Counted from the stretch's first letter, positions 10,985-32,609 are shown. The stretch: 51,511 nt of DNA from Candidatus Woesearchaeota archaeon (GCA_016180085.1 JACPBX010000011.1:1-51511); one strand, 5' to 3'. Program-made: numbers and translations. Notes: generated from the sequence alone by a model not told the origin.

Positions 10985-13450
10985 TCACAGGGAAGGCATT
11001 ATCTTCTGCATTGCGGCATACGATAGGGACATGTAAGCGGCAATTGCTGCCAGGGCTGACGGGAACCCGAGCAAGACTGTTGCCGGCACTGCCAACCCCG
11101 AATCTTTATAAGGCGACGGCTTCGGATGCAAAATCTCATTAATTGTTCTTTTTGGCGAGAAGCTGAGGAGAAACTCCTGCCAGTAGCTTTTCTGGGTTAT
11201 TTCGTGTCGCAGGTAAGCGATGCCTGGTATCAACAGCGGCCTTATTTCGCTCTCAAGTTGCTGTTGCTGCCCTTTCTCTTTTAGTATTGACTCGTTTTCC
11301 AAATCGGTAAGCATTTCTTCAAGCGTCTGCCTTGCTTCCCTGGCGAGGGGTTTCGGAAAAAGGCTTGGAGTGTGCCTAATTGCTTCAACCAGATGCATCC
11401 TTGCCATGAGGTGATGGTAAATCTGCGCCCTGAGGTTTTCAGGGTTTGTGGCAGTGTCCCTGCTCCTGTAGCCGACAAGCTCAAGATGCCTCAGGACAGC
11501 GGCTGCTTCATAGCGCATTTTCAGGATTTTCCTGTTGACGCGCTGATGCGTTCCTTTCTCTAACCTGCCGATAAAATACTCTGTTAACTCCTTATGAGCG
11601 ACTGGACCAATGTGTGGCCCATAGAACTCCAGAATGTTCACAAGCTCAAAAAACACAGGCAATATTCTTACCTGCTCCCAGTCAACCTTTCCGCAAAGGT
11701 TTCCATGTAAGCCACCAAATATCGGATTTCGCTGCGTCCAATCAGTATAAACAGCCCATGTTGAAGGGTCCTGCAGCAGCACGAAACCAAGGCCGGCAGT
11801 GCCCTCCAGCACGCTGTTGGCGAACTTCTCGCTGAAGTCCACGCCGTTTGAGGCCTGCACCCTCGAAATAAACAAATCAAATATTCTATGCATAAAGTAT
11901 ACTGAAAACCCCTGCGCTGTGTTGGGCTGCTCGGGATTTACCCCTTCTTTTCTGAACTGTTCGGCTACTGATGGCACGTTAGCAATAGAATATGAGTATG
12001 TCGCAGCCGCGGCTGGCTCGGCAACCTTGATCTTGCCTTCCTTCCTGAGTTTCTCTCCCGCAACAATCACTTTCACAAGCAAATCAAGGACAGCCTTTAC
12101 GTCAGAACGGCTCAAGGTGCCATTGATTGCCTTTTGCAGCATGGTTGCGCTACCCATGCTTTCAAGCTCAATGTAGTGGTACTGGCCATCAAAGCCCTGC
12201 CTGACAACCCTTGGCAGCATTCCAGGCAGCTCCCGCGAAAAAGCAATTATGTTTTCTACTTCCTCATCCAGCGATGCCTTGTTCCTGCTGCGCTTTATGT
12301 ACAGCTCCCCATCCGGGTCGACAAGCACCTCATTCCTTGATTCACCCACAGCTGCAAAAGCCAGGCTGGGGTCCTGCCTGAGAAGCCCGGAATAAATGTG
12401 CATCTCAAGATTCGCTGCAGCCTCATTTCCGGTTGCCTCAAAGAACAGCGCCCTTATCCTGCGCAGCTGCCTGTTTCTCGGCTCGGCAGCAGCCGCCTGC
12501 GCCAACAGGGAATTCGCGGCAGCCAGGTTTCCGCCAGCAAACTCGTGCATTGCCTTTTGAACCCTGGTGTAAATTCCTTCTTCAGCGCTGCTGCCACGAT
12601 AAGACCTTCTCACCTTTCTTCTAATCAGCCAGTCAGAAATCCCTCGTGAATCGTCCTGCCGGGCAGCCGCCCTCAGCATTCTCTTATAAGCGTTCATTGC
12701 CTCAGCGCTTTGCCCGGCTTTCATGTAGGCATCGCCAAGCCGCAGCAGGACTGCTTTTTCTTTTTCTTTGGAATGTGGAACATTGGCAAGGCGCTCAAGG
12801 TGGCTTATCGCCTTCCCGGGCTTCCCGGTTATTTTGTCAAATTTAACAGCCACAATATGCGCTGCAGTGGCCAGGCTTTCAGAATGCAGAAGTCTTTCCA
12901 AGCCGCTGAGCAGGACATAAGCGCCCAGGCCATTAACCACGCTGAAGGCAATCTCGGGAGTAAGGTTTGGCAGCTGCTGGAATAGTCCTGAATAAAAGCC
13001 GCTGAAGTCGCTGCTTAAATCAACCTGCCTTTTGTAGAGGTCGTAGCTGACTGAGCCTGCAAGCGCTGTTGCAAATGAGATTGCCGAAAAAACCGGCTTG
13101 AACTGGAACAGCCTGTTGTAAATTCCGGCAGCAGTCTCAGTTCCGAGGCCCTGGTGCTCTATACGCTTGTCATTCGCAGCTATTCGCGCTGCCTTGTCTG
13201 CAAGAATGTAAGTTAATGCACCGACAGCCACAGGCGTGTAAGCCGGATTTCCAGGAATGGAAAGCGCCGCATTCGCAACAGCTGCCGCAGCCGGCATTTT
13301 TTCCATAAGCCGCTGCTGAAGAGTGGGCTTTTCCTTTCCTCGCTGCCGCAAAGCAACTTGCGCAGTGTCGAAAGAAACGGTTTGCCTGAGGCTTTGCTCT
13401 ATAAGCTCTTCGAGGCTTTGGCCACCATCAGGGCTGCCTTTCTCATGCAT
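10985..13450 (-). CDS. Membrane protein with TPR repeats and an APH/protein-kinase-like phosphotransferase domain
   Basis: N-terminal hydrophobic helices; TPR-like LRLGDAYMKAGQSAEAMNAY; kinase-like YIKR..EEVE, YTDWTQRN and VDWE; C-terminal TM. Confidence 0.65.
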   Translation of the reverse strand: MHEKGSPDGGQSLEELIEQSLRQTVSFDTAQVALRQRGKEKPTLQQRLMEKMPAAAAVANAALSIPGNPAYTPVAVGALTYILADKAARIAANDKRIEHQGLGTETAAGIYNRLFQFKPVFSAISFATALAGSVSYDLYKRQVDLSSDFSGFYSGLFQQLPNLTPEIAFSVVNGLGAYVLLSGLERLLHSESLATAAHIVAVKFDKITGKPGKAISHLERLANVPHSKEKEKAVLLRLGDAYMKAGQSAEAMNAYKRMLRAAARQDDSRGISDWLIRRKVRRSYRGSSAEEGIYTRVQKAMHEFAGGNLAAANSLLAQAAAAEPRNRQLRRIRALFFEATGNEAAANLEMHIYSGLLRQDPSLAFAAVGESRNEVLVDPDGELYIKRSRNKASLDEEVENIIAFSRELPGMLPRVVRQGFDGQYHYIELESMGSATMLQKAINGTLSRSDVKAVLDLLVKVIVAGEKLRKEGKIKVAEPAAAATYSYSIANVPSVAEQFRKEGVNPEQPNTAQGFSVYFMHRIFDLFISRVQASNGVDFSEKFANSVLEGTAGLGFVLLQDPSTWAVYTDWTQRNPIFGGLHGNLCGKVDWEQVRILPVFFELVNILEFYGPHIGPVAHKELTEYFIGRLEKGTHQRVNRKILKMRYEAAAVLRHLELVGYRSRDTATNPENLRAQIYHHLMARMHLVEAIRHTPSLFPKPLAREARQTLEEMLTDLENESILKEKGQQQQLESEIRPLLIPGIAYLRHEITQKSYWQEFLLSFSPKRTINEILHPKPSPYKDSGLAVPATVLLGFPSALAAIAAYMSLSYAAMQKIMPSL

Positions 13451-16051: not shown

Positions 16052-16210
16052 ATGGCTTTGCCTATTGCTGTGACAGGGAAAAAAGGCACAATCATACTGT
16101 CAAAAGTGCTGATGGCGAGCGTGCTTGTCCTGGCTTCGGCAGTAATACTTTTTCTTGTAATAAGAACAGTCTTGTGCAGGACAGGAGCATGGTCTGGCGG
16201 TGTTTGCTGA
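16052..16210 (+). CDS. 52-aa micro-pilin-like protein (not in the ORF track)
   Basis: MALPIAVTGKKG/TIILSKVLMASVLVLASAVILFLVIRTVLCRTGAWSGGVC; its stop abuts the next ATG. Confidence 0.7.
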   Translation: MALPIAVTGKKGTIILSKVLMASVLVLASAVILFLVIRTVLCRTGAWSGGVC

Positions 16211-17254
16211 ATGTCAAAACAGAAATTGACAGCGCAGGGGAAAAAAGGGCTCACCCAATCGCAGACTGTAGGGATGCTGGCTGTTTTGGGCCTTGGCATC
16301 CTGCTGCTGCAGTTTACCAAGCCGCTTGTATCAGTTGCTAACGCCCAGAGCATTATTGAGGACTGTAAGTTCAGTGTTGGCCTGTCAAGCTGGCAGCTGA
16401 ACTTCAACAACTGGGTTAAGGACATCAACGTCGTAGACAGCCCTTTCAGGCTTAATTGCAAGACAATATTTACAGAAATAACCAAAGAGAGCATAAACCG
16501 GGCAGACGACAAGATAAAGCTGAGTAACGACCCAACCGAAAGGGTTGATCAGCTAAAAGAGGCTATTATGAAAAACATGAGGGAATGCTGGTATATGTAT
16601 GGTGAAGGCAAGGTGAAAATTCAGCAGACAGGGCTTTTCGAGAACGGCGAAACATCGTGCCTTGTTTGCTCGGAGATAGTGCCAAATCAAGAGTTCATAG
16701 ACAAGTTTGGCAACAAGAATCCTCTTGATGCGATGTACACTTACGCTGTAAATTCAAGGATTCCTCCTAAGGACGAAAAAAGTTACATGAATTATTTGCT
16801 TGAAGGCGCTGATCCTAGGCCAACTGGCTATCCTGACAGATCTGTTGTGCTGGACAGGCAGTATTCTGTGGTTTTTGCTGTGCATTCCAAGGAAGACGTT
16901 GATTCTGTGGGCGAAAAGGTTACTAAGAAGGTTTTCGGGTGGGATAGCAAAGCTAATACAAGCGCAGGCATCGTTGACTGCTACGTTGGCGGTGAGGGTA
17001 AGCTTACTGGCGATGAAGCTGAGGAGATTGGCTGTGACAGCAGCGGCAATAATCCTGGCCTGATTTTCGGGAAGGTTGTTGATGGCGGCACGAATGTTGA
17101 GCTGGCAACCTGGAAAAACCTTGTTGTTGGGGTTGCGACCGGAGGGGTTGGCATTTTGATTGGCGGGGATACGTTCAGGCTTAAGACCTACCCGGAGACA
17201 GTTCGCCTTGTTCCCACTGAAAGCCTGGCCAAATACTGCAAACGGCTCTACTAG
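16211..17254 (+). CDS. Class III signal-peptide surface protein (paralog A)
   Basis: KKG/LTQSQ + hydrophobic helix; MRECWYMYGEGK..CLVC. Confidence 0.75.
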   Translation: MSKQKLTAQGKKGLTQSQTVGMLAVLGLGILLLQFTKPLVSVANAQSIIEDCKFSVGLSSWQLNFNNWVKDINVVDSPFRLNCKTIFTEITKESINRADDKIKLSNDPTERVDQLKEAIMKNMRECWYMYGEGKVKIQQTGLFENGETSCLVCSEIVPNQEFIDKFGNKNPLDAMYTYAVNSRIPPKDEKSYMNYLLEGADPRPTGYPDRSVVLDRQYSVVFAVHSKEDVDSVGEKVTKKVFGWDSKANTSAGIVDCYVGGEGKLTGDEAEEIGCDSSGNNPGLIFGKVVDGGTNVELATWKNLVVGVATGGVGILIGGDTFRLKTYPETVRLVPTESLAKYCKRLY

Positions 17255-17265
17255 AACCTACGAGA

Positions 17266-18213
17266 ATGAAGCGCGCATTACATAAAAAAGGTCTTACGAA
17301 CGAAACTATTGTTCTTCTTATTCTTGTGCTGGTGGCTCTTATCTTTTCGGTGTTCCACTTCGGCAAAGGCGTTGGCGAGGCGAGCAACAAGTCTGTGGAG
17401 GTAACGGCATGCAGGGCAAGCGTTGACAGGAATGCCAGGCTGCACATAAACGGCATAGAGTTTCCAACAAGCCTGAACTGCCCGGCGCAGAAGGTGAGGA
17501 TAACAAAGGCTGGCACTGCCGAGGCGCAGGACTCTGCGAAGAAGCTGATAGCTGATGCGATGTACGACTGCTGGTACAAGTACGGCGAGGGAAAACTTAA
17601 CCTTTTCAAGGACGAGGCAACGTTCTGCTCGGTTTGCGCATTCGTCAATATTGAAACAGAGGAGCCTGTTAAGGGCTTGCCAGCTTATCTCATGACCGAG
17701 CAGTCGCCTGACAAAAGCGGGAAGCTTTACTCTGATTACCTTGCAAGCTACAAGACTTCAAAGGCAGAGCAGGTTCTTGGCGCGATAAAGGACACTCCTC
17801 TTCTTGACAGGGCTTCAGGGGCTGAGCTGAAAGGCAAAACCAACTACGCGGTGGTTTTTGTATATGCAAAAGGCAATGATGAGCTGGAAAAGCTGGCAAA
17901 CCACCTGACTGCCCAGACAACAGCAGGCAAGACAGGGCTTATCATAGGCGTTGGGGCTGGCTCGGTTGCCGGAACAACTGCCGCATTGACGCTGGTAAGC
18001 TTTGGAGTTGCCGCAGGCCCTGTCGGCTGGGCTGCTCTCGGAGTTGGTGTTTCAGTCCTGGCTGTTGTTGAGGTTGTTTCATTTTTTGCAAGCCCTGACA
18101 ATGTTCCTGAATGGGCTGCCCTTACCGCATTGAGGGAGTGGAACTCTGCAGAAACCGATAACATACTCAGGGATGACTTTGGCTGCACATATTTCCCGGC
18201 AAAGCTTGAATAG
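17266..18213 (+). CDS. Class III signal-peptide surface protein (paralog B)
   Basis: KKG/LTNE + hydrophobic helix; MYDCWYKYGEGK..CSVC; C-terminal Gly/Ala hydrophobic hairpin. Confidence 0.75.
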   Translation: MKRALHKKGLTNETIVLLILVLVALIFSVFHFGKGVGEASNKSVEVTACRASVDRNARLHINGIEFPTSLNCPAQKVRITKAGTAEAQDSAKKLIADAMYDCWYKYGEGKLNLFKDEATFCSVCAFVNIETEEPVKGLPAYLMTEQSPDKSGKLYSDYLASYKTSKAEQVLGAIKDTPLLDRASGAELKGKTNYAVVFVYAKGNDELEKLANHLTAQTTAGKTGLIIGVGAGSVAGTTAALTLVSFGVAAGPVGWAALGVGVSVLAVVEVVSFFASPDNVPEWAALTALREWNSAETDNILRDDFGCTYFPAKLE

Positions 18214-18291
18214 GAAGGGCTTGGGCGGCAGAGGCAGCGAATAAATATAAATAGCAGCCGTATAGGAAGATAAAAAGAAAAAGGTGTGCAT

Positions 18292-18456
18292 ATGAGTCTT
18301 ACTAGGTTTGGGAAGAAAGGGCAGGAAGCTTCGCCCTGGGGCCATCTTGGAGGCTGGATAATAGCCCTTGCCGTCCTCATCATTTTGGTGGTAGTCATGC
18401 TCTCGGCTTTCGGAATCATTAACCTTGACTTCATAAGGAATGCGAGGTTTGGATAA
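18292..18456 (+). CDS. 54-aa micro-pilin-like protein (not in the ORF track)
   Basis: MSLTRFGKKG/QEASPWGHLGGWIIALAVLIILVVVMLSAFGIINLDFIRNARFG; SD-like AAGGTG upstream; TAATG overlap with the giant gene. Confidence 0.75.
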   Translation: MSLTRFGKKGQEASPWGHLGGWIIALAVLIILVVVMLSAFGIINLDFIRNARFG

Positions 18457-21400
18457 TGCGCACAGGCTTTGGCTCTGGCAAAAGGGGTGCGGGCTGGGGT
18501 TGGCTGCTTGGCGCAGTGCTAATGGCACTTGTCATATTTACTGTTCCTGCTGTAAAAAACATAGCTTACGGTGCTCTTGAAAACACCCTCAAGATTGCCG
18601 GCATTGACATTGGGAATCCCAGGATAGGCGCTTTCTCTGCAAAGCCAGTGGACATAGGCGGTGATGGTAAAATTGAAATGAGGTTTGAATTGTCAGTAGC
18701 CGGCAACAAGGACAGCGCTTATTTGGAGATTTATGAGAGCAAGGCCAGTGATGACAAGACCGCAGCGCAGCTTGAGCCGCCTCCGGCAAAGTTTGGCGAT
18801 GATGACAGGATTTACAGTACCCGGCGAACAGAAGGCAGATTGTCCGAATTGGCTAAGAAAGGGGTTTTTAGTATAAACTGCCCCGGACATGATGAGTGCA
18901 AAGCTTTTGATTACGTGCCTAAGCCCAGGGATGAGTTCAAGCCCGGCCTGTACAGGTTCACTGCTGTTATCAGGAAAGCAAAGGACAACAAGGTTGTGTA
19001 CTCCAAGGATGTTGTTGCTGGGTTTTACGATGAGGAGTATGTTGAGCTTCTTGACAAGCCTGCCGTGGGCTGTCCTGACTGTAACGTTATTGAGTGCAAG
19101 AGAAAGCAGATGGAAACCTTGCTGGAGGAAAAAGACAAGTGCAGTGAAGGCGTTAAGATACTGTACAAGGAGTCTGGGGGAAGGGTTAACGTTGTTGACG
19201 TGAACGGATGCGCCTTCCCAATTGAGCCTGTAAAGCACACTGACCCGCTGACAAACGCAGAGTTCACAGGCTGCTTGGCTTCACAGATAAACCTCATCCA
19301 CTCCCAGACCGTGCTTTCAGCATTCTACAGGATAGCATGTGAGAAGGGAGACGGCATAGGAGCATTGACCGACCTCCCTCTGGCTGAGGACAAGCTTGCC
19401 AAAAAAGGCCTTGGCATAAGCCAGGTAAAGGAGATGGCAAAGGATTTCATGCAGTCCTGCTCAAAGAAGGCGGAAAGTTATCTCAACGGCAAGGGCTGGT
19501 TTAAGGCAGAGACGGCCCAGTCAAGAAGGGCTGCGTATGATGACAAAATAACAAGCTACCTTGATAACAAGGTCATGCCTGGCGTTACAGGCGTAAGCCT
19601 GAACAACGATCAAACCGGCCTTTTGGTCGTCAGCTGGAAAGCCCTGACTGGACAGGCCAAGGTTGGAAAGTTTGTGATAGAGCATGTTGTTACAAAGGCT
19701 ATTGACCCTGAAAGCAAAGAGGTGCAAACCTTTGGCGAGACCTTGGAGAAGCTGCCTAGCGAGCTGACGCCTGCCGTGGATGGCTTCTCTTTTACAATCA
19801 GGCCTGAAAACTCTAACCTTGCGGGCTGGCATGAGTTTATCGTGTCAGCCGTAAGCAAGGATGACCCCGGCTCGAGCTCTGTGAAGAGCTCAAGCGGAAG
19901 GGGCCTTTACAACCTGCGCTTTTTGGAGCTTTACCAGACCCACCCAAAAGGCTGCACTGACGACAAGTGCAACGTCATCAAGAAGAAGAAGGAGATGATC
20001 AAAAGCTCGCCAGGCGCTGACGAGGCTTACATGATTTGGAGTGGCAGGATAAAAAACGCAGGGTGTGTTTACGACGAGAAAAAAGGCATGGACGACTGCC
20101 CTGAGCCGGAAGCAGTTGACATAATGTACAGGGGAATAATCGGGCTCTCGCGTGTTGGTTCTGATTTTGAAAAGGCTGTTGGCATGGAATGTGGTGCCTC
20201 AAACACTCCTGAAGGCAGGGTGTGCTCTGCCAGGAAGGAATTAAAGGCAGAGCTTGAAAAGAGAGGCTGGTTCCAGGTTGTGGTCGAAACTCCGATTGTG
20301 ATAACTCCATCAAATGTCAAGGTTCAGGATTTCAAGGCTGTGGCCAGAGCCGATGGCGGTATTGACGCAGAGTTTGTTGTAAGCGGGAATGTGGCCAAGA
20401 TAAGCGGCTTTGCAGTTGAGCACAGGTTCAACAGGTTCTACCGCGATGACAGCAAGCAGTTTGTCAACCTTCTGCCTATGGAGGTTGCCAAAGACAAGAG
20501 GGAAGTGGTAATTGGACCGTTTGAGGAAAGGTTTGACGGCTATCACAAGTTCAGGCTTAAGGCGGTTGATGATTTGAGCATTGAGCTAAGCTCAAGTGCA
20601 GAAGTCGCTGCCGGTTTTTATACGCAGGGCTATCTTGACTTTTACGATGGCGATGCTGAGAACTGCAAGGGCGATGGCGGCTGCGATGTTGTTGGCAGGA
20701 AGCGGGATTACCTTAAGGAGAAGAGAGATGCTGCGATAGAAGTTTTCGCAAATGACGAGGCAGTTAGGAAAGGCTTGGAATTTTTTGGCTGTAGCATAAA
20801 TGGGCTGGACAGGTGCAGGCCGGAAGGCGTTCAGGCTTTGTTCGCTGCCGTTCTTGGAAAGTTTTACCCGAACACAGACCAGCAGAATGAGCTTTTGACA
20901 AAATGCGAAACAAAAGGGAACCCTTACGTGGATATCTGCAAAGCCAGGAAAAACCTTGAGTCAGCCTTGAAGAGCAACGGCTGGGTTGAAGTTACAAAGC
21001 CAAGAGCAGAAACAAAAGCTGCTTTGCCCACAACAACAGCAGACATCAAGACAGTGCCTGAAAGGCCATTGCCCGGGGAGCTTTTCACCCTGGTTGTGGA
21101 AGCTGCATCTTCCCATGCCATAAGATGGCTTAAGATAGCAGAAGGCAATTCAAAGGAGTGGAAGACTGTGCCTTGTGACTGGCTTAGCAAGACGTGCAAG
21201 CGCGAATGGTCAAGGCTTTACTTTGACCCAAACCCTGTCCCTATAAGAATAGCTGTGGTTGATGCGACCGAGCGTGTTTCTGAGCTTGAGCCTTTTACGC
21301 CAAGTGTTGCCTGGAGCTGCCTTGGCTCAAAAAAGGCTGGTGAAAAATGGGTTGGGTGCAAAACAAACGACCAGGAGGAAGTGCTTTACGAGTGCAACAG

Positions 21401-24400
21401 CGACGGTAGCTTTACAACGCATATTCCCGAGAAAGAGGAAGATAGAAAGCCGTCATCTTTCCTTTGCGGGGGAATAGTTGATTATGGCCAGGCAGAAACA
21501 GGAAGCCAGGGAAACTGCATCTACACATGTAAGTTTGATGCTGAGTGCAGCGCTGTTGGAGGCTCAATAGCTCCCTTTGAGTGCCCTGGCAAAAACACAG
21601 GCATGAGAGGTGTTGAGCTTAAGCAAGTGTGCTGCGAGGTTGGAGCACCGCAAGAGGTAAACCCGAAAACTGTTGGCGTCCTTTCAATCATTACAAACAT
21701 CATGAACGAGAACCTGATAGCGAACTCTGTTGGCGGTTTTTTCTTCGTTTTTGACCTCATCAACCCGGTTAAAATGTTCACGGAAAGCGAGAAAAGTAGG
21801 CAAAGGCAGGATTTGCTGGACATCATGTTAAAGCTTCAGGCTGATGCTGAGCAGGGCACTTCCCTCAGCAGCGTTGTTGGCGCAATGGGCACTTTGAAAA
21901 AGGACGAAAAAGAGAGGAAGAAGTATCTTGACCAGAAATACCAAAGCATCAGCAACCAGTTTTACAGCTACGCGGCAAAGCTGGAGATTGATGCAGGCAG
22001 CGACAACAAGGCCAAACGCGATAGGGCAAGGGCAACATTGGCAGAGCTGAACCCGGTTATTGCCAACTTTAACCTCTACACCCTTCCTCAGCGGGAGTTT
22101 GACGAGCTGGCTATTCGGCACAGCACTGATCCCCTTGTGCTTCAGATAGCAAGGTATGACGCCCTCACCTGGCTTGACGACGACAGGCAGTTTGAGGCTC
22201 TTGATGACATTTACTTCGAGGTTGGGAAAAGCCTGGAAAAAACAAAGGATGAAGGTATGGCTGTTGAGATGTATAACCTTGTGCTGGAAAACTTCCGCGA
22301 GTCTGAGCATGCGCAGGAGTCGAGGGACAGGATAGAACTCCTTCAATCATTTCGCCACAAGGCTGGAACCTTGACTCAGAGCCTCGCGATAGACATATTC
22401 GGAGACCCTACGTTTTACGTGTTTGGCGGTCCAAAAGCTTTGATAAAGGGCGGCCTTACCGCTGTGAGGGTTTTGTCAAAAACTCCGCAAATTGCAGCTC
22501 AGACAGCAAAGCAAGCCGGCAAGGTTTCAGAGCCCCTCCTGAGGGAAGCTCTTGCAAGCTCTGGCGTGAAGAGCAGGGAGATTCTGGAAAAAGCCCCGGG
22601 CATGCTTGTGAGGTCTGGAGGCAAGGTCAGCCAGGAGCTTGTGGAATTGCTTGCAAATGTTCCAAGAGTGATAAAGTCCAGGATGATAAAAACCGTTGTG
22701 GACCGGGAAGGCAGGGTATTTTTTGAAACTACGGCGCTTAAGGGCGGCCAGAAGATAAGGGTGCCTTACCTGGAGAGCTTCAAAACCGCCCTGGCTGTCA
22801 GCTCAGATAAGCTCGGCGAGTTCAAAAAAGCGTATAGGGATTTAATGATTGAGAAAGGCCATCTTTTTGGCAATCCCAACGACCAGAAGCTGGCAATAAG
22901 GCTCCTGCAGAGCGGCTTGGACAAGGATGAAGTAGTTAAGGTCCTTACAAAGGCTGACAAGATTGCTGATGACTATGATCTTCTGACAAAAGTGGTGAAC
23001 AACTTCATGGAGCCCGAGTTCGGCATTACGCAGCCAAGGCTGGTGAGAATGATTTTGGCTGCTAAAGCAACCCCGGCCTCGGTAGAGGATGCCCTGTCCA
23101 TAAAGAGGGCTGCAACCGAGGTCATACTTAAGAATCTGGGCAACAACAGGAACAGGTTCCTTGTCGCCAAAACCCCGGGAGGCCAGGACGTCAAAGTGGC
23201 CCTAAACCGCCAACTGATGAAAGGCGACTTAGCTGGGGAAGTTGAAAAGGCCGGAAGCAAGTACGCTGAAGTCATGAGCAAGTATCCAAATCTGTTGGAC
23301 AATGCCGATGACCAGAAGAGGGTTTTGGACCTTGTCCAGGCTCCTGATTTGGGTGCGGATGACATAGGGCATCTTATCACCCGTAGGGCGAACGCCGACT
23401 CTGCCATAAAGCAGGGCTTCCTTGACAGCTATGTGAAGAAGATTGCACCCACGCTTGACAGGATTAACGACGCTGACGAGATACTGAAAGCCCAGGACTT
23501 TACAGATGCCATAAGGAAGGCGAGAATAGACAGGGCCAAGGTGCTAAAGCAGGCAAACAAGCGCTTCAGGGGAATCGACATTGACATCAAAATGAATGAG
23601 CTGCTTCAGCAAAAGCTAGCCGAGGCTGCTCTTAGAAGCGGAAGGGCAGCGAAAATAGAAGGGGCCATAAGCGGGGACTCTGCTGACTTGTCAAAAACCT
23701 TTTACGGGGCATTCGGGCCAATGGCAGAAGGCAGGGGAGCCGTGGTTGTTCCTGAGCATGTCCCAACATTTTTCAACAGGCTTGTCGCCATTAAAAACAG
23801 TATTTCAGACTTCGCCATAAGTTCTGAGATTATGGCTGGAGTTGCTTCCGAGGAGGCCAAGCTGGTTGTAAAAACACTGCATGCCCATGCCATTGAATAC
23901 GGGGCGCCTGTCGTGAAGCTTGCCAGGGAAAAGGGCTTAAGGCCCCTCAATGCCATTGTTTCGTTTGATATTTCAAAAGCCAGCATGCTCAGCCCTGCCA
24001 AGTTTGCCGAGCTTGACGAAGTTGCAGGAGTTGTTGTGCCTGTGATTGCGCAGGCCCCTGACGGCACAGACGAGCTTGCCTTTGTGGTCTTTGAAAATGG
24101 CGCCATACCTGCAGAAGTCCTGCCACAGACCGACCTGTTATTTCTCCCTGACGGCTCTGCGCCGTACTGCGCATATTACGATGTGGTTGTTGAATGCACT
24201 CTTGACGATGAAGTTTCGAGAAGCGCCATGCCGACCGCTGTTTTCGGCAATAATCTGGAGAAGCAGGTGCTGATAAGCCTGAACATGCGCAACCTTGAGG
24301 GTTTTGAAACTACGAAAGATGACTGGCTTAAGGACAACATTGCTCCTTTGGCTGCAAACGTTGAGGTTAATGATGAAGCGCTTAGTGATGCTGAGGCGGA

Positions 24401-24593
24401 CGCTGCGCTCACAGAAAAGGCTGATGAGCTGCTCGGCAAGGCAGGCACTGCTTACGACACTTCAAAGCAGCTCAGGGCTAATGGCTTGAGCGATGTGGAG
24501 GTTCAGCAGTTCCTTGTTTCGGCAAAAGACTTATCAGCTTTCAATGACTTGAAAGATGTTCCTGTTGAAAGCCTGAGGGTGAGGTTAGGATGA
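18456..24593 (+). CDS. Giant 2045-aa class III signal-peptide surface protein with three internal repeats
   Basis: KRG/AGWGWLL + TM; three beta-sandwich + Cys-rich repeats; Cys-rich module; TPR-like segment; helical C-terminal half. Confidence 0.8.
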   Translation: MRTGFGSGKRGAGWGWLLGAVLMALVIFTVPAVKNIAYGALENTLKIAGIDIGNPRIGAFSAKPVDIGGDGKIEMRFELSVAGNKDSAYLEIYESKASDDKTAAQLEPPPAKFGDDDRIYSTRRTEGRLSELAKKGVFSINCPGHDECKAFDYVPKPRDEFKPGLYRFTAVIRKAKDNKVVYSKDVVAGFYDEEYVELLDKPAVGCPDCNVIECKRKQMETLLEEKDKCSEGVKILYKESGGRVNVVDVNGCAFPIEPVKHTDPLTNAEFTGCLASQINLIHSQTVLSAFYRIACEKGDGIGALTDLPLAEDKLAKKGLGISQVKEMAKDFMQSCSKKAESYLNGKGWFKAETAQSRRAAYDDKITSYLDNKVMPGVTGVSLNNDQTGLLVVSWKALTGQAKVGKFVIEHVVTKAIDPESKEVQTFGETLEKLPSELTPAVDGFSFTIRPENSNLAGWHEFIVSAVSKDDPGSSSVKSSSGRGLYNLRFLELYQTHPKGCTDDKCNVIKKKKEMIKSSPGADEAYMIWSGRIKNAGCVYDEKKGMDDCPEPEAVDIMYRGIIGLSRVGSDFEKAVGMECGASNTPEGRVCSARKELKAELEKRGWFQVVVETPIVITPSNVKVQDFKAVARADGGIDAEFVVSGNVAKISGFAVEHRFNRFYRDDSKQFVNLLPMEVAKDKREVVIGPFEERFDGYHKFRLKAVDDLSIELSSSAEVAAGFYTQGYLDFYDGDAENCKGDGGCDVVGRKRDYLKEKRDAAIEVFANDEAVRKGLEFFGCSINGLDRCRPEGVQALFAAVLGKFYPNTDQQNELLTKCETKGNPYVDICKARKNLESALKSNGWVEVTKPRAETKAALPTTTADIKTVPERPLPGELFTLVVEAASSHAIRWLKIAEGNSKEWKTVPCDWLSKTCKREWSRLYFDPNPVPIRIAVVDATERVSELEPFTPSVAWSCLGSKKAGEKWVGCKTNDQEEVLYECNSDGSFTTHIPEKEEDRKPSSFLCGGIVDYGQAETGSQGNCIYTCKFDAECSAVGGSIAPFECPGKNTGMRGVELKQVCCEVGAPQEVNPKTVGVLSIITNIMNENLIANSVGGFFFVFDLINPVKMFTESEKSRQRQDLLDIMLKLQADAEQGTSLSSVVGAMGTLKKDEKERKKYLDQKYQSISNQFYSYAAKLEIDAGSDNKAKRDRARATLAELNPVIANFNLYTLPQREFDELAIRHSTDPLVLQIARYDALTWLDDDRQFEALDDIYFEVGKSLEKTKDEGMAVEMYNLVLENFRESEHAQESRDRIELLQSFRHKAGTLTQSLAIDIFGDPTFYVFGGPKALIKGGLTAVRVLSKTPQIAAQTAKQAGKVSEPLLREALASSGVKSREILEKAPGMLVRSGGKVSQELVELLANVPRVIKSRMIKTVVDREGRVFFETTALKGGQKIRVPYLESFKTALAVSSDKLGEFKKAYRDLMIEKGHLFGNPNDQKLAIRLLQSGLDKDEVVKVLTKADKIADDYDLLTKVVNNFMEPEFGITQPRLVRMILAAKATPASVEDALSIKRAATEVILKNLGNNRNRFLVAKTPGGQDVKVALNRQLMKGDLAGEVEKAGSKYAEVMSKYPNLLDNADDQKRVLDLVQAPDLGADDIGHLITRRANADSAIKQGFLDSYVKKIAPTLDRINDADEILKAQDFTDAIRKARIDRAKVLKQANKRFRGIDIDIKMNELLQQKLAEAALRSGRAAKIEGAISGDSADLSKTFYGAFGPMAEGRGAVVVPEHVPTFFNRLVAIKNSISDFAISSEIMAGVASEEAKLVVKTLHAHAIEYGAPVVKLAREKGLRPLNAIVSFDISKASMLSPAKFAELDEVAGVVVPVIAQAPDGTDELAFVVFENGAIPAEVLPQTDLLFLPDGSAPYCAYYDVVVECTLDDEVSRSAMPTAVFGNNLEKQVLISLNMRNLEGFETTKDDWLKDNIAPLAANVEVNDEALSDAEADAALTEKADELLGKAGTAYDTSKQLRANGLSDVEVQQFLVSAKDLSAFNDLKDVPVESLRVRLG

Positions 24594-25345
24594 TATACGA
24601 CAGCGGTATTGAAGGCAGTTCTGCCGGTTCGCCTGGCAATCGAAGCGCAAAAGCTTTTCTGGCTGCTGCCGGCATAGTAATAGGGGTTGCTGTTGTCGTG
24701 GCTGCACTTTTCATAATATTTCAGCCTGAAGAAAAAACAATAAAGCTACCGGCTGTTGAAGAAGCCCAGCTGGTTTTTACCTCGCCAACTGACGCCGAGC
24801 AGCAAGCTATTGTAAGAAGCCTTGTTGGCTATGACTGGGCTGTGCTCCTGAACACTCCCCTTGATGACAAAAGGGCCGTGCTTGCAGTGCCTTACCTTGC
24901 AAGTTTGGAACTGGAAACTGCCATTGCGCAGCACAATCTTCTCGACAACTCAGCCAGGTATGTTGGAGCTGGGGCAGTCCAGCTTGTGAAGAATGACTCC
25001 GGCCTTAGGGGCATTTTGGAAAGCCTTGCAGCCATAGAGGATGAGTACTACCGCCTTGGGCTGCCTTCAGGGGTTGTGCATGCCGAAAGGCTCAGGCACC
25101 TTGCCAAAATGCTTGAAGTGTACGGCCCGCCTGCTGGAGAAATAAGGGATTCTGAAACCAGGCAGTTTGCCCAGGACCATCTCGGATTTTCTGTTGACTC
25201 GTACGAGGCGTGGTATACACTTATAAGTATAAGATACGGCAGTTTAATTAAAAACATTGAAAAAACAAAAGACAAAAAGTCTATACTTACTGTTAAGGAA
25301 TATCTGGGAGGAAATCCCCAGAGAAAGGAAGTTTTGACAAGGTGA
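24590..25345 (+). CDS. Single-pass membrane-anchored hypothetical protein
   Basis: One N-terminal TM (FLAAAGIVIGVAVVVAALFIIF); ATGA overlap with the upstream stop. Confidence 0.7.
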   Translation: MIYDSGIEGSSAGSPGNRSAKAFLAAAGIVIGVAVVVAALFIIFQPEEKTIKLPAVEEAQLVFTSPTDAEQQAIVRSLVGYDWAVLLNTPLDDKRAVLAVPYLASLELETAIAQHNLLDNSARYVGAGAVQLVKNDSGLRGILESLAAIEDEYYRLGLPSGVVHAERLRHLAKMLEVYGPPAGEIRDSETRQFAQDHLGFSVDSYEAWYTLISIRYGSLIKNIEKTKDKKSILTVKEYLGGNPQRKEVLTR

Positions 25346-25351
25346 TAAAGC

Positions 25352-25654
25352 ATGGCCGGAAGCGAAAGGAGTGGAAGAAGAAGAGGTTCAAAGAGTGCAG
25401 CAGCTTTGTCGCTGGAAACAATCGCGGTTGCGGCAATAATACTTGTTGTCCTGATAATTGTCCTAGCAATCTTCACAGGAGGGTTTAACAAAGTCAGGTT
25501 TCAGATAGGGAAGGTCAATAATTGTGAGCCTGAAAATGAATGCGTTGAACCAGATGGAACATGCAATGCCGGTGAAAAGATATACGGCCTCGGCTGTGAG
25601 GAAAAATATCCGGGGACAAAAACCTACTGCTGCAAGAAGCAGCCGGATGTCTAG
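25352..25654 (+). CDS. Pilin-like protein with Cys-rich C-terminus (candidate major pilin)
   Basis: Basic leader then ALSLETIAVAAIILVVLIIVLAIF; 6 Cys in the C-terminal half. Confidence 0.72.
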   Translation: MAGSERSGRRRGSKSAAALSLETIAVAAIILVVLIIVLAIFTGGFNKVRFQIGKVNNCEPENECVEPDGTCNAGEKIYGLGCEEKYPGTKTYCCKKQPDV

Positions 25655-26291
25655 TGGAAGGATTGGCGGAATGGGAAGAATGCGGAAAAATAAGAGAGGT
25701 GCGGCACCCACTAGCCTGCTTATGGCCATAGGCTATGCTTTGGGTTTTATCCTGTTTGTTCTAATTCTGCAGATTGCAGGTGGTAAAGTGGGGCTGACTA
25801 TAGGAGGCACGGCTGAGGCAGCTACTGCCATTGACAGGGGCTTTGCCGACCTTACTAAGAAGGCGGAGGAGCTTGAGGACAGTAAGCCGCCGGTTGACTT
25901 TGCCCTGACCGTTGACAAGGACTTTTTCCTGGTAAGCTTCAACAAAGCTCCCGACGTAAAAAACGGCAATGCCGTAAGCCCGCCTGAATGTAACGGTGTA
26001 TCATGCCTTTGCGTTTGCATTGATGACAAGTGCGAGGACATTGACGTCCAAAAGAACAGGGGCAGGGACTGCAGGCCGATATACCAGTATAATGCAATAA
26101 TAGCTGAAGGGGATGACAGCTTTAAATGCAATGATGGCAGCGAGTGCAACAGGGGAGGTAAGCATACAAGCTATAAGTACGTTGATGAGTCAGGCAGTGT
26201 GTCGGATGGCTACTACTTTTACATTAAGGGCGAGAAAACGTTTTCTGCAAAGATTCGGAAAAGCAGCAGCAACCTTTACATAGGGCAGTAA
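25647..26291 (+). CDS. Class III signal-peptide, Cys-rich protein
   Basis: Start probably 25647 or slightly later; KNKRG/AAPTS + TM; CNGVSCLCVC motif. Confidence 0.72.
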   Translation: MSSGRIGGMGRMRKNKRGAAPTSLLMAIGYALGFILFVLILQIAGGKVGLTIGGTAEAATAIDRGFADLTKKAEELEDSKPPVDFALTVDKDFFLVSFNKAPDVKNGNAVSPPECNGVSCLCVCIDDKCEDIDVQKNRGRDCRPIYQYNAIIAEGDDSFKCNDGSECNRGGKHTSYKYVDESGSVSDGYYFYIKGEKTFSAKIRKSSSNLYIGQ

Positions 26292-26342
26292 ACCCTGCCA
26301 TACTTTACCGCAACTAATTTAAATGCCTGTGCAGATTATCCG

Positions 26343-26825
26343 TTGTTGATGCGGAAGCTTGTGCTGGGAAAAAGAGGGGCTGAAGCGACAACAGTCGAGG
26401 TGTGGTTTGTCGTTATCGGGCTGATACTTGCCGCGCTGGTAACCACCGGCCTTTTGAAAAAGACAGTTGACGACATCAAAGGAAAAACCCTGGAGAAGAA
26501 CTACATTGCCAGGGACATTGCCCTTGCGCTGGACGCTGTTTACGCCGCCCCCGGCGATGTGGAGTACACCTATTCCCTCAAGAAATATAAATTTGTCGTT
26601 GAGATAAAAGACTCCAAGGTTTTTGTCAAGGACTCTCTGGGAGAGAAAGACGCTACCGCCGGCATTTACGATTATTTCGGGGACCCTGACAGTAAGCTGA
26701 GCGTGAGGATAACGCCTCTGCCCGACGACCCTAGGCCAATGCTGGTTACGTTAGGCAACAGGAATGATGTTTTGCTTGTAAAAGCCGAGAATGCGTTTTT
26801 GGAAGAAGATGTGGCATTTACCTGA
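26343..26825 (+). CDS. Class III signal-peptide (minor pilin-like) protein
   Basis: GKRG/AEATTVEVWF + TM; YIARDIALALDAVYAAPG. Confidence 0.75.
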   Translation: MLMRKLVLGKRGAEATTVEVWFVVIGLILAALVTTGLLKKTVDDIKGKTLEKNYIARDIALALDAVYAAPGDVEYTYSLKKYKFVVEIKDSKVFVKDSLGEKDATAGIYDYFGDPDSKLSVRITPLPDDPRPMLVTLGNRNDVLLVKAENAFLEEDVAFT

Positions 26826-27387
26826 CAGTCTGGTTTATTTGGCTCTGCTGGCAAGGAGCAAGAGAGGCCTCGCCATATCAGACAAGATGCTGCTGTGGAT
26901 TCCAAGGTTTATTTTTACAGTGATAGTTGTCGGGCTGACTTTTTACATCATACTTTCGTTTATAATCACTAAAACAAACGTTTCCGAGGCAGAGTCAAAC
27001 ATACTTACGGACGTTGCTTACTATTCCGGTGATGGCTTCTCTTTTGTTGATAAGGATACGAACAGGGTTTATGCCGGTGTTATAGACGGGTCAAAGTTCA
27101 GCGACGCCCAGCTTGGAGCGCTGCTTAGCAATGACAAGCCGTTGCTTGTTGGCAGGTTTGTAAGGCGGCAGACTATTATTGATTACCTTTTGCATCCCCA
27201 AACAGATGCGGTAGCTTACACCGATAAAGCAAGGTATGGGCAGTGGCAGCCCATAGCGCAGCTGAAAGGGGAAGGCGAGGGAGGCAAGACGCCTTATTCA
27301 GAGGTCAGGTATGTTGCCGTGCGCAATCCGGCAACAGGCAATTCAAAAGGAGCGGTGGTCGAAACCGTTTTCATAGCTTCGAACTGA
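26791..27387 (+). CDS. Class III signal-peptide (minor pilin-like) protein
   Basis: SKRG/LAISDKML + TM. Confidence 0.72.
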   Translation: MRFWKKMWHLPDSLVYLALLARSKRGLAISDKMLLWIPRFIFTVIVVGLTFYIILSFIITKTNVSEAESNILTDVAYYSGDGFSFVDKDTNRVYAGVIDGSKFSDAQLGALLSNDKPLLVGRFVRRQTIIDYLLHPQTDAVAYTDKARYGQWQPIAQLKGEGEGGKTPYSEVRYVAVRNPATGNSKGAVVETVFIASN

Positions 27388-27397
27388 GGATGGAAAG

Positions 27398-28192
27398 ATG
27401 GTAATGTTCAGGGCAATGCTAAAAAGCAGGAAAGGGCTGGACTTTTGGGACATTTTCTTTTACCTGTTCTATTTTCTGGTAGCTTTCATAATAATATTTC
27501 TGCTTAACATTGCAGGATGCGTGATTAAGGATAAGGAAGCCAGGGCTGGAATCGGCGCTGACGTCAGCCTCGCGGCAGTCATAAGGGCTGACGCGCAGCT
27601 TGACAGCTATTTGAGGACACAGATGCCTGGCAAAGAAGAGCTGCTTGAAAAGATGGGCTGGGTGGAGAAGAATAAAAACGCGAAATACATCAAGGGCCTT
27701 GTCAAAGAGATTGACTTCAACTTTGGAAAGGTCGAGGATTTTCTCAACAAGCATCCTGAGGTTTACTCTGACAGGGACTACTCAGGCTTCATAAGCGGCC
27801 TGCACCCCTTTTACGTCTCCGGAAGCAAAAAGGACAAGGAAGATTCTGAAAGGGTTTTCAAGGCCGTAACTGCGGTTATGTTCATCAGGGCTGTGATTGA
27901 TTACCCGAAAAAGGGCGATTACATGTTCTATCTTTTGCCTTTGGGCGTTGATTTTGGCCCTTCTGACCTGAAACCGAGCAGTAAGGAAGACATGTGCAAA
28001 TCATCCTACGAATTGTGCGCGCAATACCTCCCTCCGGAAGTTGTTCCCAGCCTGAAAGACCCTTTAATCTATGTCTCGCCAGTAAGGTTTTCAAGCCAGG
28101 CCATCCAGATTATTCCTCTGGCAGACGCAACACTGGCAAAGGTTGAGTTCAGGTATTATCCGGAGTTTAAATCGAGGCTGCCGCAGCCGTGA
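27398..28192 (+). CDS. Class III signal-peptide (minor pilin-like) protein
   Basis: SRKG/LDFWDIFF + TM. Confidence 0.72.
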   Translation: MVMFRAMLKSRKGLDFWDIFFYLFYFLVAFIIIFLLNIAGCVIKDKEARAGIGADVSLAAVIRADAQLDSYLRTQMPGKEELLEKMGWVEKNKNAKYIKGLVKEIDFNFGKVEDFLNKHPEVYSDRDYSGFISGLHPFYVSGSKKDKEDSERVFKAVTAVMFIRAVIDYPKKGDYMFYLLPLGVDFGPSDLKPSSKEDMCKSSYELCAQYLPPEVVPSLKDPLIYVSPVRFSSQAIQIIPLADATLAKVEFRYYPEFKSRLPQP

Positions 28193-28201
28193 GGTAAGGT
28201 T

Positions 28202-29368
28202 ATGACCACGCCAACAAAGCCGATGAAGCTGTTATCAGGAAACAAGCGGGGGATGGATTATTACGTTTTTATAGTCTCGCTTGTTGGCGTGCTTATGCTC
28301 AGCTTCATAACATTCAGCCTTTTCACCAAGCAATACAGCCTTAGCTCAGGGCTTTCTACCGGCACAGAGCAGTTCAGGGTGCTGAAAACATACGCCGCAG
28401 CCGAAAAAGCCCTGCTCTTCGCTGACGATGCTGCAAGGCTGGCTTTGGAGCAGGCTGCTTACAAGTACGGGAAAAGCGGGTTTTACTATTCGGGTGCCCC
28501 ATGCGGCAGCAATGGCGGCTACAACTATTGGGCAAAGGATGAAATTCTCCAGAAGAATGACTGCGTGCCTCAGCCAGCGAATCCTTCCGGGTGCTATCCT
28601 GACGAGCCCATGATGAAGTGGACTCTTTCAACTTTTTTCTACTACGATTTCTACAAATTCGTTTCAAAATTCAATAGCATCAGCGAGGTTAAGATTCCTT
28701 TTAATTACGAACCGTTCGGCGTAGCGACAGGCAGCACACAGATTATTGGCATATCGAAAGACCCAATAACAATAAGCATTCCTAACGTTAAGTACGAAGT
28801 CAAGCCGGGCTTCAGGGAAAGCATAAACCGGGATCTAATTGGCGATGGCAGTTCTGTTGTTGCGGTTGCCAAGCAGCTTGCCGGTAAAAGCGAGAAGGAG
28901 GCAAAGAAAATAGTTTCTTCAGCTGATAGCAGTGATGCAGGCAGCCTTGATTGGAATGAAAAGTTTGCCTACAGCAAGGCAAAAAATTCCTGCCTTTACG
29001 CCATTGGCTCATGCACATGCTGCGAAACCATTGAAACGTGCGAGGAGTATGAGTTTGACGAAGAAGGCAACCCTGTCCTGGATGATGATGGAAAAATTAT
29101 TTGCAAGAAAAAAGGCACTTCAGAGGTTCCTGTAGGTGATGGCACAGAATACAGGACAATACCTTACGACAGCTTTGACATCCCGATGAGCGTCAGGGTC
29201 AACGACCCTGCTTCAGGCACAAGCCATAAGCAGTATTTAGTTTATGATGAGGCAGCAAAAAAGGAGGTGCTGAAAGAGCTCGAGTACAACTTCGCAGTAA
29301 ACTGGATAGAGGACCACCCCGAAGACTCAACAACCTCCTGCTCCTGCGGCACAGGACATCCATGCTGA
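28202..29368 (+). CDS. Class III signal-peptide, Cys-rich surface protein
   Basis: NKRG/MDYY + TM; several Cys clusters; acidic loop EFDEEGNPVLDDDG. Confidence 0.72.
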   Translation: MTTPTKPMKLLSGNKRGMDYYVFIVSLVGVLMLSFITFSLFTKQYSLSSGLSTGTEQFRVLKTYAAAEKALLFADDAARLALEQAAYKYGKSGFYYSGAPCGSNGGYNYWAKDEILQKNDCVPQPANPSGCYPDEPMMKWTLSTFFYYDFYKFVSKFNSISEVKIPFNYEPFGVATGSTQIIGISKDPITISIPNVKYEVKPGFRESINRDLIGDGSSVVAVAKQLAGKSEKEAKKIVSSADSSDAGSLDWNEKFAYSKAKNSCLYAIGSCTCCETIETCEEYEFDEEGNPVLDDDGKIICKKKGTSEVPVGDGTEYRTIPYDSFDIPMSVRVNDPASGTSHKQYLVYDEAAKKEVLKELEYNFAVNWIEDHPEDSTTSCSCGTGHPC

Positions 29369-31538: not shown

Positions 31539-32609
31539 ATGCAAAAAAATTTAAACAATGAGGTGATTGCGGTGAGGAGGAAACAGGAGCAGGAATCGGT
31601 TTTGGTTGGGGAAGAGAGCATAGTTGAGGGGGAAGATGCTGTGAAGTCTGCTGAGAAGCCTGTAGATGGCACTGAGAGGGGCTCTGAGCTTGAGCAGCTG
31701 CCTGGTGTTGGCGCAGCCACGGCTGAGAAGCTTGCCTTGGGTGGTTATGATACCTTGCTTGGCGTAGCGGTAGCTACCCCTGGCGAGCTTGTTGAGCTGA
31801 CTGGCGTTACCGAGCTTGCTGCCAGGAAGATGATTCAATTCGCTCGAGACAAATTAGAGATGGGATTTGTGTCTGCTGAGGATGTTTTGGTGAAAAGGCA
31901 GGGGATTGGCAAGATAAATTCAGGCAGTACTGCTCTTGACAACCTGCTTGGTGGGGGTTTTGAGACAGGAGCAATTACGGAAGCATATGGCGCGTATGGC
32001 GCCGGAAAAAGCCAGCTTGCCCATAGCCTTGCTGTTAACTGCCTAAGACAATTCCCGGATTCCTATGTTGTCTTCATCGACACAGAATCTACCTTCAGGC
32101 CCGAAAGGATAATTGACATTGCGAAAGCGCAGGGCCTTGAGCCTGAAAAAGTTCTTAAGCAGATTAAAGTGGCCCGTGCCTTTAATTCAGACCACCAGAT
32201 GCTGCTGGCTGAGAAGATTGATGACCTAATAAAGAAGCAGGGGCTTAATGTCAAGCTGGTTGTTGTTGATTCGCTCACGGCACATTTCAGGGCAGAGTTC
32301 ATCGGCCGGGGAACGCTGGCTGACAGGCAGCAAAAGATTAACAAGCACATGCACACGCTGATGCGGCTGGCTGAGCTTAACAACCTGTGCGTTTACGTTA
32401 CTAACCAGGTCATGGCGAAGCCTGACATGTTCTTTGGCGATCCCACTGAGGCAATTGGGGGGCACATCGTCGCACACGCCTCCACATACCGCCTGTATCT
32501 AAGGAGGGGCAAGAAGGGAACCAGGGTTGCGAAGATGATTGACAGCCCAAGCCTGCCGGAAGGAGAGGCAACCTTCGTGCTTGATACAGCCGGTGTCAGG
32601 GACGTGTGA
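31539..32609 (+). CDS. radA: DNA repair and recombination protein RadA
   Basis: Hh[13 protein letters not shown], Walker [35 protein letters not shown]; no intein. Confidence 0.97.

Follow-up and report, generated by a model that had tools for sequence, protein, structure and literature searches.

The subject of this study is an open reading frame (ORF) of 2045 amino acids (aa) (P0001, hereafter the giant; 18456..24593, + strand, frame open) in a stretch of 51,511 nucleotides from Candidatus Woesearchaeota archaeon (GCA_016180085.1 JACPBX010000011.1:1-51511), the whole of which is referred to as the window. We put at about one in two the probability that the giant is a large modular subunit of a surface apparatus of pilin-leader proteins, that it carries an accessory C-terminal unit, and that it belongs to the hardware of cell contact and not to the cassette-swapping toxins. 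An earlier note on this DNA had described a pilin-anchored protein with an adhesin-like N-terminal half (N-half) and a C-terminal half (C-half) resembling toxins or phage ejection proteins; the ORF and nearly all of the features listed there proved real, and the protein does consist of two parts, a repeat-rich N-half with a pilin leader and a separable C-half. The window, which encodes RadA, RPA, fibrillarin/Nop and A-type ATPase subunits, comes from a DPANN archaeon; among named records, the nearest homologues of the giant are annotated Candidatus Woesearchaeota archaeon, and the genome (G000, ~1.0 Mb) is 83% complete.

The giant and its cluster of pilin-leader genes

The giant begins with a class III-type (prepilin-like) leader (residues 1-41, 18456..18578, +), in which KRG at residues 9-11 is followed by a hydrophobic helix with a hydropathy of 2.24 at residues 15-33 (Kyte-Doolittle, 19-aa window, the usual transmembrane threshold being taken as 1.6), in agreement with the class III leader claimed before; the [KR]G is kept in most orthologue leaders. 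Its ATG overlaps the TAA of an upstream micro-ORF by 1 nt. Behind the leader lie three diverged repeats (residues 42-365, 366-612 and 613-850; 18579..21005, +), each composed of a beta-rich part and then a Cys-paired helical part that closes in GW. Pairwise BLASTP aligned repeat 2 with repeat 3 at 27% identity over 218 aa (E 2.7e-18), and repeat 1 with repeats 2 and 3 at E 2e-4 and 4e-4, respectively, confirming that the three segments are repeats. They are followed by a presumed Ig-like beta-rich domain (residues 851-950, 21006..21305, +), so named on the basis of sequence only, a region that is 60-70% identical in orthologues and gave no Pfam match over ~869-942. The N-half ends in a Cys-dense knot closing in VCC (residues 951-1062, 21306..21641, +), which contains, as the earlier note had it, a dense set of Cys, ten in residues 955-1060. 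From residue 1002 onward the knot aligns with the distant homologue P0009, Cys included, and AlphaFold2 (AF2) predicted short strands for it (predicted local distance difference test score, pLDDT, ~60-70). The giant has 34 Cys up to residue 1060 and, after that, only the pair 1905/1914; at the genome average of 1.16% about 9.8 Cys would be expected in the intervening run of 844 residues (1061 to 1904), so that the Cys-free stretch noticed before is a genuine one.

The giant is part of a collinear cluster of ~11 genes (16052..29368, +), consisting of two micro-ORFs (16052-16210 and 18292-18456; ~53 aa each, leader included), the giant itself and the genes at 16211, 17266, 25352, ~25680, ~26349, 26791, 27398 and 28202. 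Ten ORFs neighbouring the giant within 16052-29368 open with [KR][KR]G and a hydrophobic helix, and the sole + strand ORF of this interval without such a leader is a partner gene at 24590, inserted after the giant. The order of the cluster (micro-ORF, ~345 aa, ~320 aa, micro-ORF, gene 5, ~95, ~200, ~155, ~185, ~262 and ~365 aa), in which the giant is gene 5, is kept in four other genomes (L001, L002, G408 and G367). RPA, YdjM and RadA lie downstream of the cluster, and its final gene is present in 25 of the 25 genomes of the family sample, which are related and partly incomplete and on which all allele and partner counts given below rest.

The products of 16211 and 17266 (16211-18213) are paralogues according to tblastn cross-matches, and each closes in a hydrophobic segment rich in Gly and Ala, which may give it a second anchor at that end. 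The cluster is flanked by an 821-aa protein with weak TPR matches (10985-13450, - strand). Since counterparts of 838 and 804 aa, with weak APH matches, are found at the same position in L001 and L002, this protein belongs to the conserved neighbourhood.

Long and short alleles, the partner gene and conservation of the C-half

The long form of gene 5 was found in 4 of the 25 family genomes (G000, that of the window, G409, G406 and G096), which belong to two genera, and five other genomes have ORFs of 559-696 aa at this position. Four of these are complete short orthologues (599-696 aa) made of the leader and two repeats, with a stop just past the repeat-closing GW, and the fifth, a frame of 559 aa, ends at its locus end; the typical length of gene 5 in most relatives is ~600-700 aa. 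In G408 and G367, which are of the same genus as the window, the remainder of the cluster is intact, and their loci differ from the window by ~4.9 kb, equal to 1376 extra codons and one gene. What the long form has in addition is the third repeat, the beta domain, the Cys knot, a ~285-aa helical module and, beyond it, another ~700 aa. Between the window and G409 the giant is 59% identical and the final cluster gene only 41%, whereas between the window and G406 the respective values are 42% and 56% (loci L018, L019, L028 and L033 for the two comparisons); these discordant identities inside one cluster suggest recombination or allele exchange within the locus.

The product of the partner gene (24590..25345, +) is a 251-aa protein in which a short N-terminus and a single transmembrane helix precede a Cys-free C-terminal domain of ~200 aa that is predicted to face outward. 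The ATG of this gene overlaps the TGA of the giant in the sequence ATGA, an arrangement of translational coupling. The partner accompanies the long form in each of the four genomes and was not found in the remaining 21, indicating that the C-half and the partner are gained or lost as one unit, and at 50-71% identity it is as conserved as the module. In addition, a 269-aa homologue of the partner (25% identity over 215 aa, E 5.6e-13) adjoins P0009 in convergent orientation, and therefore the partner tracks the module across deep divergence. Co-variation of the 24590 gene, which the earlier note had raised as a question, was thus found both within the family and beside a distant homologue. A complex prediction for the module and the partner ectodomain gave a score of 0.00, which weighs neither for nor against binding.

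The last ~700 aa of the giant (22491..24590, +) are predicted to be mostly helical with small beta elements and end in the acidic tail seen before (net charge -14 for residues 1761-1960 and -8 for residues 1961-2045). Nine proteins were recovered when residues 1100-2045 were compared exhaustively, by phmmer, with 1.84 billion representatives; apart from three that share only the module (see below) these are orthologues and fragments, and the ~700-aa region itself occurs only in the 50%-identity representatives P0001, P0005, P0007, P0011 and P0019, together with P0002-P0004. No internal repeats were found in residues 1340-2045 by BLAST. A short motif, DQK..L.LLQ.GL..DEV...L, recurs at residues 1473-1497, 1616-1641 and 2004-2025 of the giant, and a similar one, KAGYSKEAIKQELINGGY, stands at the N-terminus of P0009's partner protein (L012:12328-13134). 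When identity to P0002-P0004 was calculated per 100-aa bin, residues 1101-2000 scored 56-73% and residues 1-200 only 29-34%, and P0005 aligns with the giant end to end at 41% identity. The C-half is thus better conserved than the N-terminal tip, which is the reverse of the polymorphic-toxin signature, a kept N-half with a variable C-terminus, that the earlier note had proposed to look for among homologues.

This result bears on the possibility that the giant is a contact-dependent effector, in which the module would act in translocation or as a pre-toxin, the ~700 aa would be released, perhaps at a G-D-P sequence in the module, to enter a host cell, and the partner would provide immunity. We consider this improbable. 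The strict co-occurrence of the downstream gene with the C-half is what such a system would show, but the partner is an outward-facing membrane protein of 50-71% identity and not a variable cytosolic immunity protein, no orphan cassettes lie downstream of the giant gene at the compared loci, and the C-half, as described above, is the better conserved part. Nor did any toxin, pre-toxin or ejection family emerge from the searches: no Pfam family reached E <= 0.01 with the complete giant, the Tox- families, PT-VENN, PT-TG and PT-HINT included; no PHROGs family reached E <= 0.1 with either residues 1-1057 or residues 1058-2045; NCBIfam gave for both halves at E <= 0.1 only a weak, sub-threshold match to the TPR family YbgF (E 0.032 and 14.8 bits, the cut-off being 90); and scans of the partner and the neighbouring genes with the same three libraries gave no usable match. 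A profile search of PDB sequences produced only a chance zinc-finger row (E 0.6), and an ESM Atlas feature search with residues 1340-2045 nothing usable. Together with the structural searches by Foldseek and VIA, these results leave the likeness to toxins, pre-toxins and ejection proteins without a single match.

The shared module and the location of the C-half

Between the knot and the ~700-aa region lies the module (~285 aa, residues 1063-1345, 21642..22490, +), for which P0009, P0010, P0012 and P0018 could be aligned with the giant (alignments A3 and A5; all our alignments are shallow, with 4-10 sequences). Its first element is a long helix; an aromatic/hydrophobic loop and a ~200-aa helical domain follow, and after these come a second semi-hydrophobic patch and a basic stretch. 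The helical domain has the motifs YD, AxExYN and LxSxxHKA in the giant, shared as YD, AxExY and LxSxxHK. The loop (GGFFFVFD, residues 1087-1105, 21714..21770, +) corresponds to the hydrophobic segment GGFFFVFDLI of the earlier reading; its hydropathy of 1.5 is below the transmembrane threshold, and the aligned loop reads TGFGVxxW(F/L)N in P0009, P0010 and P0018 and is more divergent in P0012. The second patch (DIFGDP...GGP), which had been pointed out at 22392-22470 and is indeed there, and the basic stretch following it span residues 1306-1340 (22371..22475, +). G1316, D1317 and P1318 are invariant in a four-sequence alignment, and every distant homologue retains the Asp, in the form of either D-P or D-N. 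The hydropathy of this patch is <1.0 in the giant, 1.0-1.15 in the orthologues and 1.3-1.5 in P0009, P0010, P0012 and P0018.

An AF2 model of residues 1000-1345 (10 sequences; predicted TM score, pTM, 0.62) has a pLDDT of 70-90 in the helical domain (model residues 105-300) and places the GGFFFVFD stretch, at pLDDT <50, in a loop between two long helices. The part that had been called TPR-like is predicted to be helical, with TPR/MIT-like hairpins at residues ~1224-1311 (22125..22388, +), and support for the TPR label is at noise level: VIA gave Z 8.3 to IpgC (62 residues, root-mean-square deviation 2.2) and Z 7-8 for other TPR rows, all within helical-fold noise, the TPR rows of the Atlas for the module had TM below 0.55 (TM by query was at most 0.29 in the Atlas search as a whole), the YbgF match reached E 0.03, and Pfam TPR families had no match in the giant. 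A Foldseek search of PDB with the module model returned nothing at E <= 0.001, the top rows being F-BAR, XaxA, YaxA and TcA at E >0.1, and no significant structural match for the module came from Foldseek, the Atlas or VIA (maximum Z in VIA 8.3, TPR-like). For the helical hairpin as a candidate XaxA/YaxA/ClyA fold, Foldseek gave non-significant rows (E 1.1 for XaxA and 1.2-1.6 for YaxA, TM <0.2), and no row of this kind is in the VIA top 50.

Among the proteins found by phmmer, P0009, P0010 and P0012 have only residues ~1000-1345 in common with the giant; P0018 was obtained from a later profile search. The module is rare. Enlargement of its family yielded 3 proteins by profile search and 3 by a search with the module region of P0009; a scan of genome contigs detected the module only in P0009's own genome, a scan of metagenome contigs detected none, and, of 401 genomes of the phylum that were searched in full, 2 contained it. 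P0009 (1458 aa) is encoded on an archaeal (DPANN) contig that also carries NurA and DUF1512; it possesses a KG-type leader of its own, and a small pilin-like gene precedes it. P0012 is on a bacterial contig with RF-1 and a bacterial L31, and we infer that P0010, P0012 and P0018 come from bacteria like those of the Candidate Phyla Radiation (CPR). These three have in common an N-terminal anchor and a cohesin-like domain, and upstream of them lie Cys-rich proteins with dockerin-like repeats (L013:196-1179 and L014:2-1048), which suggests a putative cohesin-dockerin surface complex in the bacterial module loci. The module is 44-53% identical in the bacterial proteins; that of P0009 is 53% identical to bacterial P0018 and 24% to the giant, which hints at transfer of the module between archaea and bacteria.

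Past the module, P0010 and P0018 contain an HD-like region (Pfam HD, E 0.005-0.008, below the cut-off), and P0009 and P0012 share one C-terminal domain (L012:11209-11841 and L013:2950-3660). The latter in isolation has no Pfam match, and its nearest Atlas rows include ADP-ribosyltransferase (ART) toxin families (Tse2, Tox-ART-HYD1, DarT and Scabin-like), all of them sub-threshold (score 0.81-0.86, TM 0.43-0.48), so an ART fold for this domain is a weak lead. C-terminal variability is therefore seen in the distant module proteins, which carry different C-termini, and not among full-length orthologues. These differing C-termini and the ART-like rows are the other points that would suit release of an effector into a host, as would the observation that all post-module regions, conserved pairs apart, are Cys-free. 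Cys-free sequence is usual in proteins that cross membranes unfolded. Nevertheless, variable cargo in that sense would rest on a total of three post-module architectures in very few proteins.

The earlier note had taken the switch from Cys-rich to Cys-free sequence as a sign of two compartments. Past the knot, Cys residues occur solely as conserved pairs: C1905/C1914 in a predicted beta-hairpin (24168..24197, +), which is found in all five full-length homologues and invariant in alignment A1, C-x22-C in the distant modules, and C-x7-C past the second patch in P0009, P0012 and P0018. Furthermore, N-x-S/T sequons number 0 in the giant versus 8.2 expected (4.1 per half), and none is present in the C-half of any of the five homologues, where 3-4 would be expected in each, whereas other giant ORFs of the same genome are rich in them (for instance, 491 observed versus 214 expected) and large ORFs of cytoplasmic type are near expectation. 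The paired Cys and the absence of sequons in both halves suggest that both halves reside in the same extracytoplasmic environment, which weakens the two-compartment interpretation.

The same data speak to a bitopic protein, in which one of the semi-hydrophobic patches would be a second transmembrane helix, residues ~35-1070 (or to 1305) an ectodomain and the C-half a cytoplasmic linking or signalling part. Such a topology would agree with the hydropathy of 1.5 at residues 1087-1105 and of 1.3-1.5 at the second patch of P0009, P0010, P0012 and P0018, with the strongly basic stretch past the second patch, which fits the positive-inside rule, with the HD-like domain of P0010 and P0018, ordinary for the cytoplasm, and with the position of the Cys switch at the first patch. 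However, both patches are below 1.6 and each contains Asp, Asn or Glu, and the branches differ in which patch is the better transmembrane candidate, the first being favoured in the giants but the second in P0009, P0010, P0012 and P0018. A constitutive second span is hard to reconcile with this difference between branches, as homologous modules would adopt opposite topologies. The conserved C-x7-C just past the second patch, the 1905/1914 pair and the absence of sequons from the five C-halves also disagree with it, and we think a cytoplasmic C-half unlikely.

We return to the giant as a modular subunit of contact hardware. In favour of this are the leader and its recurrence in ten neighbouring ORFs, the filament-type machinery encoded elsewhere in the genome, the conserved order of the cluster, the joint occurrence of long form and partner, the sharing of the module with P0009, P0010, P0012 and P0018, the paired Cys and absent sequons, the conservation of the C-half, and the precedent of bacterial modular pilins. 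The following mechanism may be envisaged. The N-terminal helix would serve as an anchor, either in the membrane or at the tip of a type-IV-filament-like structure, with the repeats as a stalk or adhesin, and the entire chain including the C-half would be outside the cytoplasm. The module, through its aromatic loop, G-D-P patch and basic stretch, would contact a membrane or envelope, most plausibly that of a host, and the outward-facing domain of the partner would dock the module or shield the producer from it. The long form would then be an accessory allele of this hardware. Several observations weigh against such an assignment. The [KR]G is missing from the leaders of P0019, G408 and G414, and the C-terminal hydrophobic segments of the 16211 and 17266 products suit a membrane-embedded complex better than a filament. 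The genome does have a prepilin peptidase (Peptidase_A24, PF01478, 51.6 bits, contig C17), T2SSE-type ATPases (PF00437, 133.7 bits on C35 and two more above the cut-off) and T2SSF platform proteins (PF00482, C29 and C35), but all of these genes are on other contigs and none is beside the cluster. An AF2 model of the C-half (residues 1060-2045, 9 sequences), predicted mostly helical, is of low confidence (mean pLDDT 50.7) and does not permit a fold to be assigned, VIA finding only TPR/MIT-like hairpins in it. The basic stretch past the second patch and the HD-like regions of P0010 and P0018 would also fit a cytoplasmic C-part.

Two further interpretations were considered. The C-half may be a passive extension, that is, a helical stalk or sheath tied to the producer membrane via the partner, giving a fibre or canopy that is anchored at both ends and has no membrane-active role. 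Conservation of the C-half among orthologues, its mostly helical prediction, the placement of the partner in the producer's membrane with an outward-facing domain and the double-anchored appearance of the 16211 and 17266 products are all compatible with this, but it leaves the conserved aromatic loop, the G-D-P patch and the basic stretch without explanation, the unit is dispensable in 21 of the 25 relatives, and the module is joined to enzyme-like C-termini in other lineages; we regard it as a minority possibility. A far-reaching and doubtful proposal is that the module and the partner are a horizontally mobile unit, not described before, for host-membrane engagement or delivery in ultra-small DPANN and CPR-like episymbionts, held by pilin-leader or cohesin anchors and bearing C-terminal cargo that can be exchanged, whether HD-like, perhaps ART-like or, as in the giant, the 700-aa helical region, which would make it a new contact-dependent effector system.

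Three observations on the source genome stand apart from these subjects. The B subunit of the A-type ATPase is encoded by two overlapping ORFs (47053-47568 and 47565-48329), with the N- and C-terminal Pfam domains, respectively, which could reflect a frameshift, a fault in the assembly or a gene that is truly split. The genome has other giant ORFs of 10656 aa (C29:4078-36045), 4281 aa (C14:39529-52371) and 2494 aa (C36:21653-29134). The RadA gene of a related genome (L001:23860-26165) contains an intein with a LAGLIDADG endonuclease, and that of the window (31539-32609) has no intein.

Significance and comparison with known systems

Attachment to other cells is the way of life of DPANN archaea and CPR bacteria, and, to our knowledge, the molecules with which they make or exploit host contact are largely unknown. 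According to a survey (PMC13705601), type-4-filament systems are uncommon in DPANN archaea. The locus described here is a concrete candidate, being a family-wide cluster of pilin-leader genes whose largest subunit has a short and a long allele. Should the module engage or cross host membranes, it would be a starting point for understanding the way in which episymbionts establish a connection with host cells; should it serve only as a stalk, the giant would be a clean case of modular growth in an archaeal pilin-like adhesin, far above the sizes surveyed in bacteria.

Polymorphic toxins or contact-dependent inhibition proteins such as CdiA, Rhs and MafB, reportedly treated by Zhang et al. in 2012, resemble the giant as large surface proteins with N-terminal trafficking and repeat regions, with a junction module and differing C-termini in distant homologues, and with a small gene immediately downstream that tracks the C-terminal part. 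Unlike them, the giant has a C-terminus that is conserved in orthologues, no recognised toxin or pre-toxin domain and no orphan cassettes, and its partner, a membrane protein that faces outward, equals the module in conservation. With the alpha-helical binary pore-forming toxins (XaxAB/YaxAB, ClyA) the giant may have in common long helical hairpins with a hydrophobic tip segment, as predicted for the module, and action together with a second protein; however, the Foldseek rows are non-significant, sequence similarity is absent, and the partner of the giant is anchored in the producer's own membrane. The type IV pili of Saccharibacteria (PMC9894109 and PMC11623550) are comparable in that ultra-small episymbionts use pilin-based host contact and that the module also occurs in CPR-like proteins, whereas the pilins in question are canonical type IV pilins and no homology to the giant or the module is known from those studies.

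The closest known systems are the modular type IV pilins (Streptococcus sanguinis PilB/PilC, CofB of enterotoxigenic Escherichia coli (ETEC) and GspK; PMC8179133). The giant differs from them in being archaeal and 2045 aa long against a maximum of 860 aa in the bacterial survey (PMC8179133), in having modules that match no known domain family and ATPase and platform genes elsewhere in the genome, and in possessing a separable accessory C-half with a dedicated partner. An archaeal variant of 2045 aa with short and long alleles and a module-partner unit shared with bacterial proteins is described in no library searched, and the modular pilin-like adhesin as such is a known kind of protein. In both the bacterial proteins and the giant, a class III-type leader and helix are followed by grafted modules, and the gene lies among small pilin-like genes. 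Bacteria have modular pilins whose bulky grafted parts can be accommodated at the filament tip and nowhere else (PMC8179133), and a tip location and a part in adhesion would likewise be expected of the giant.

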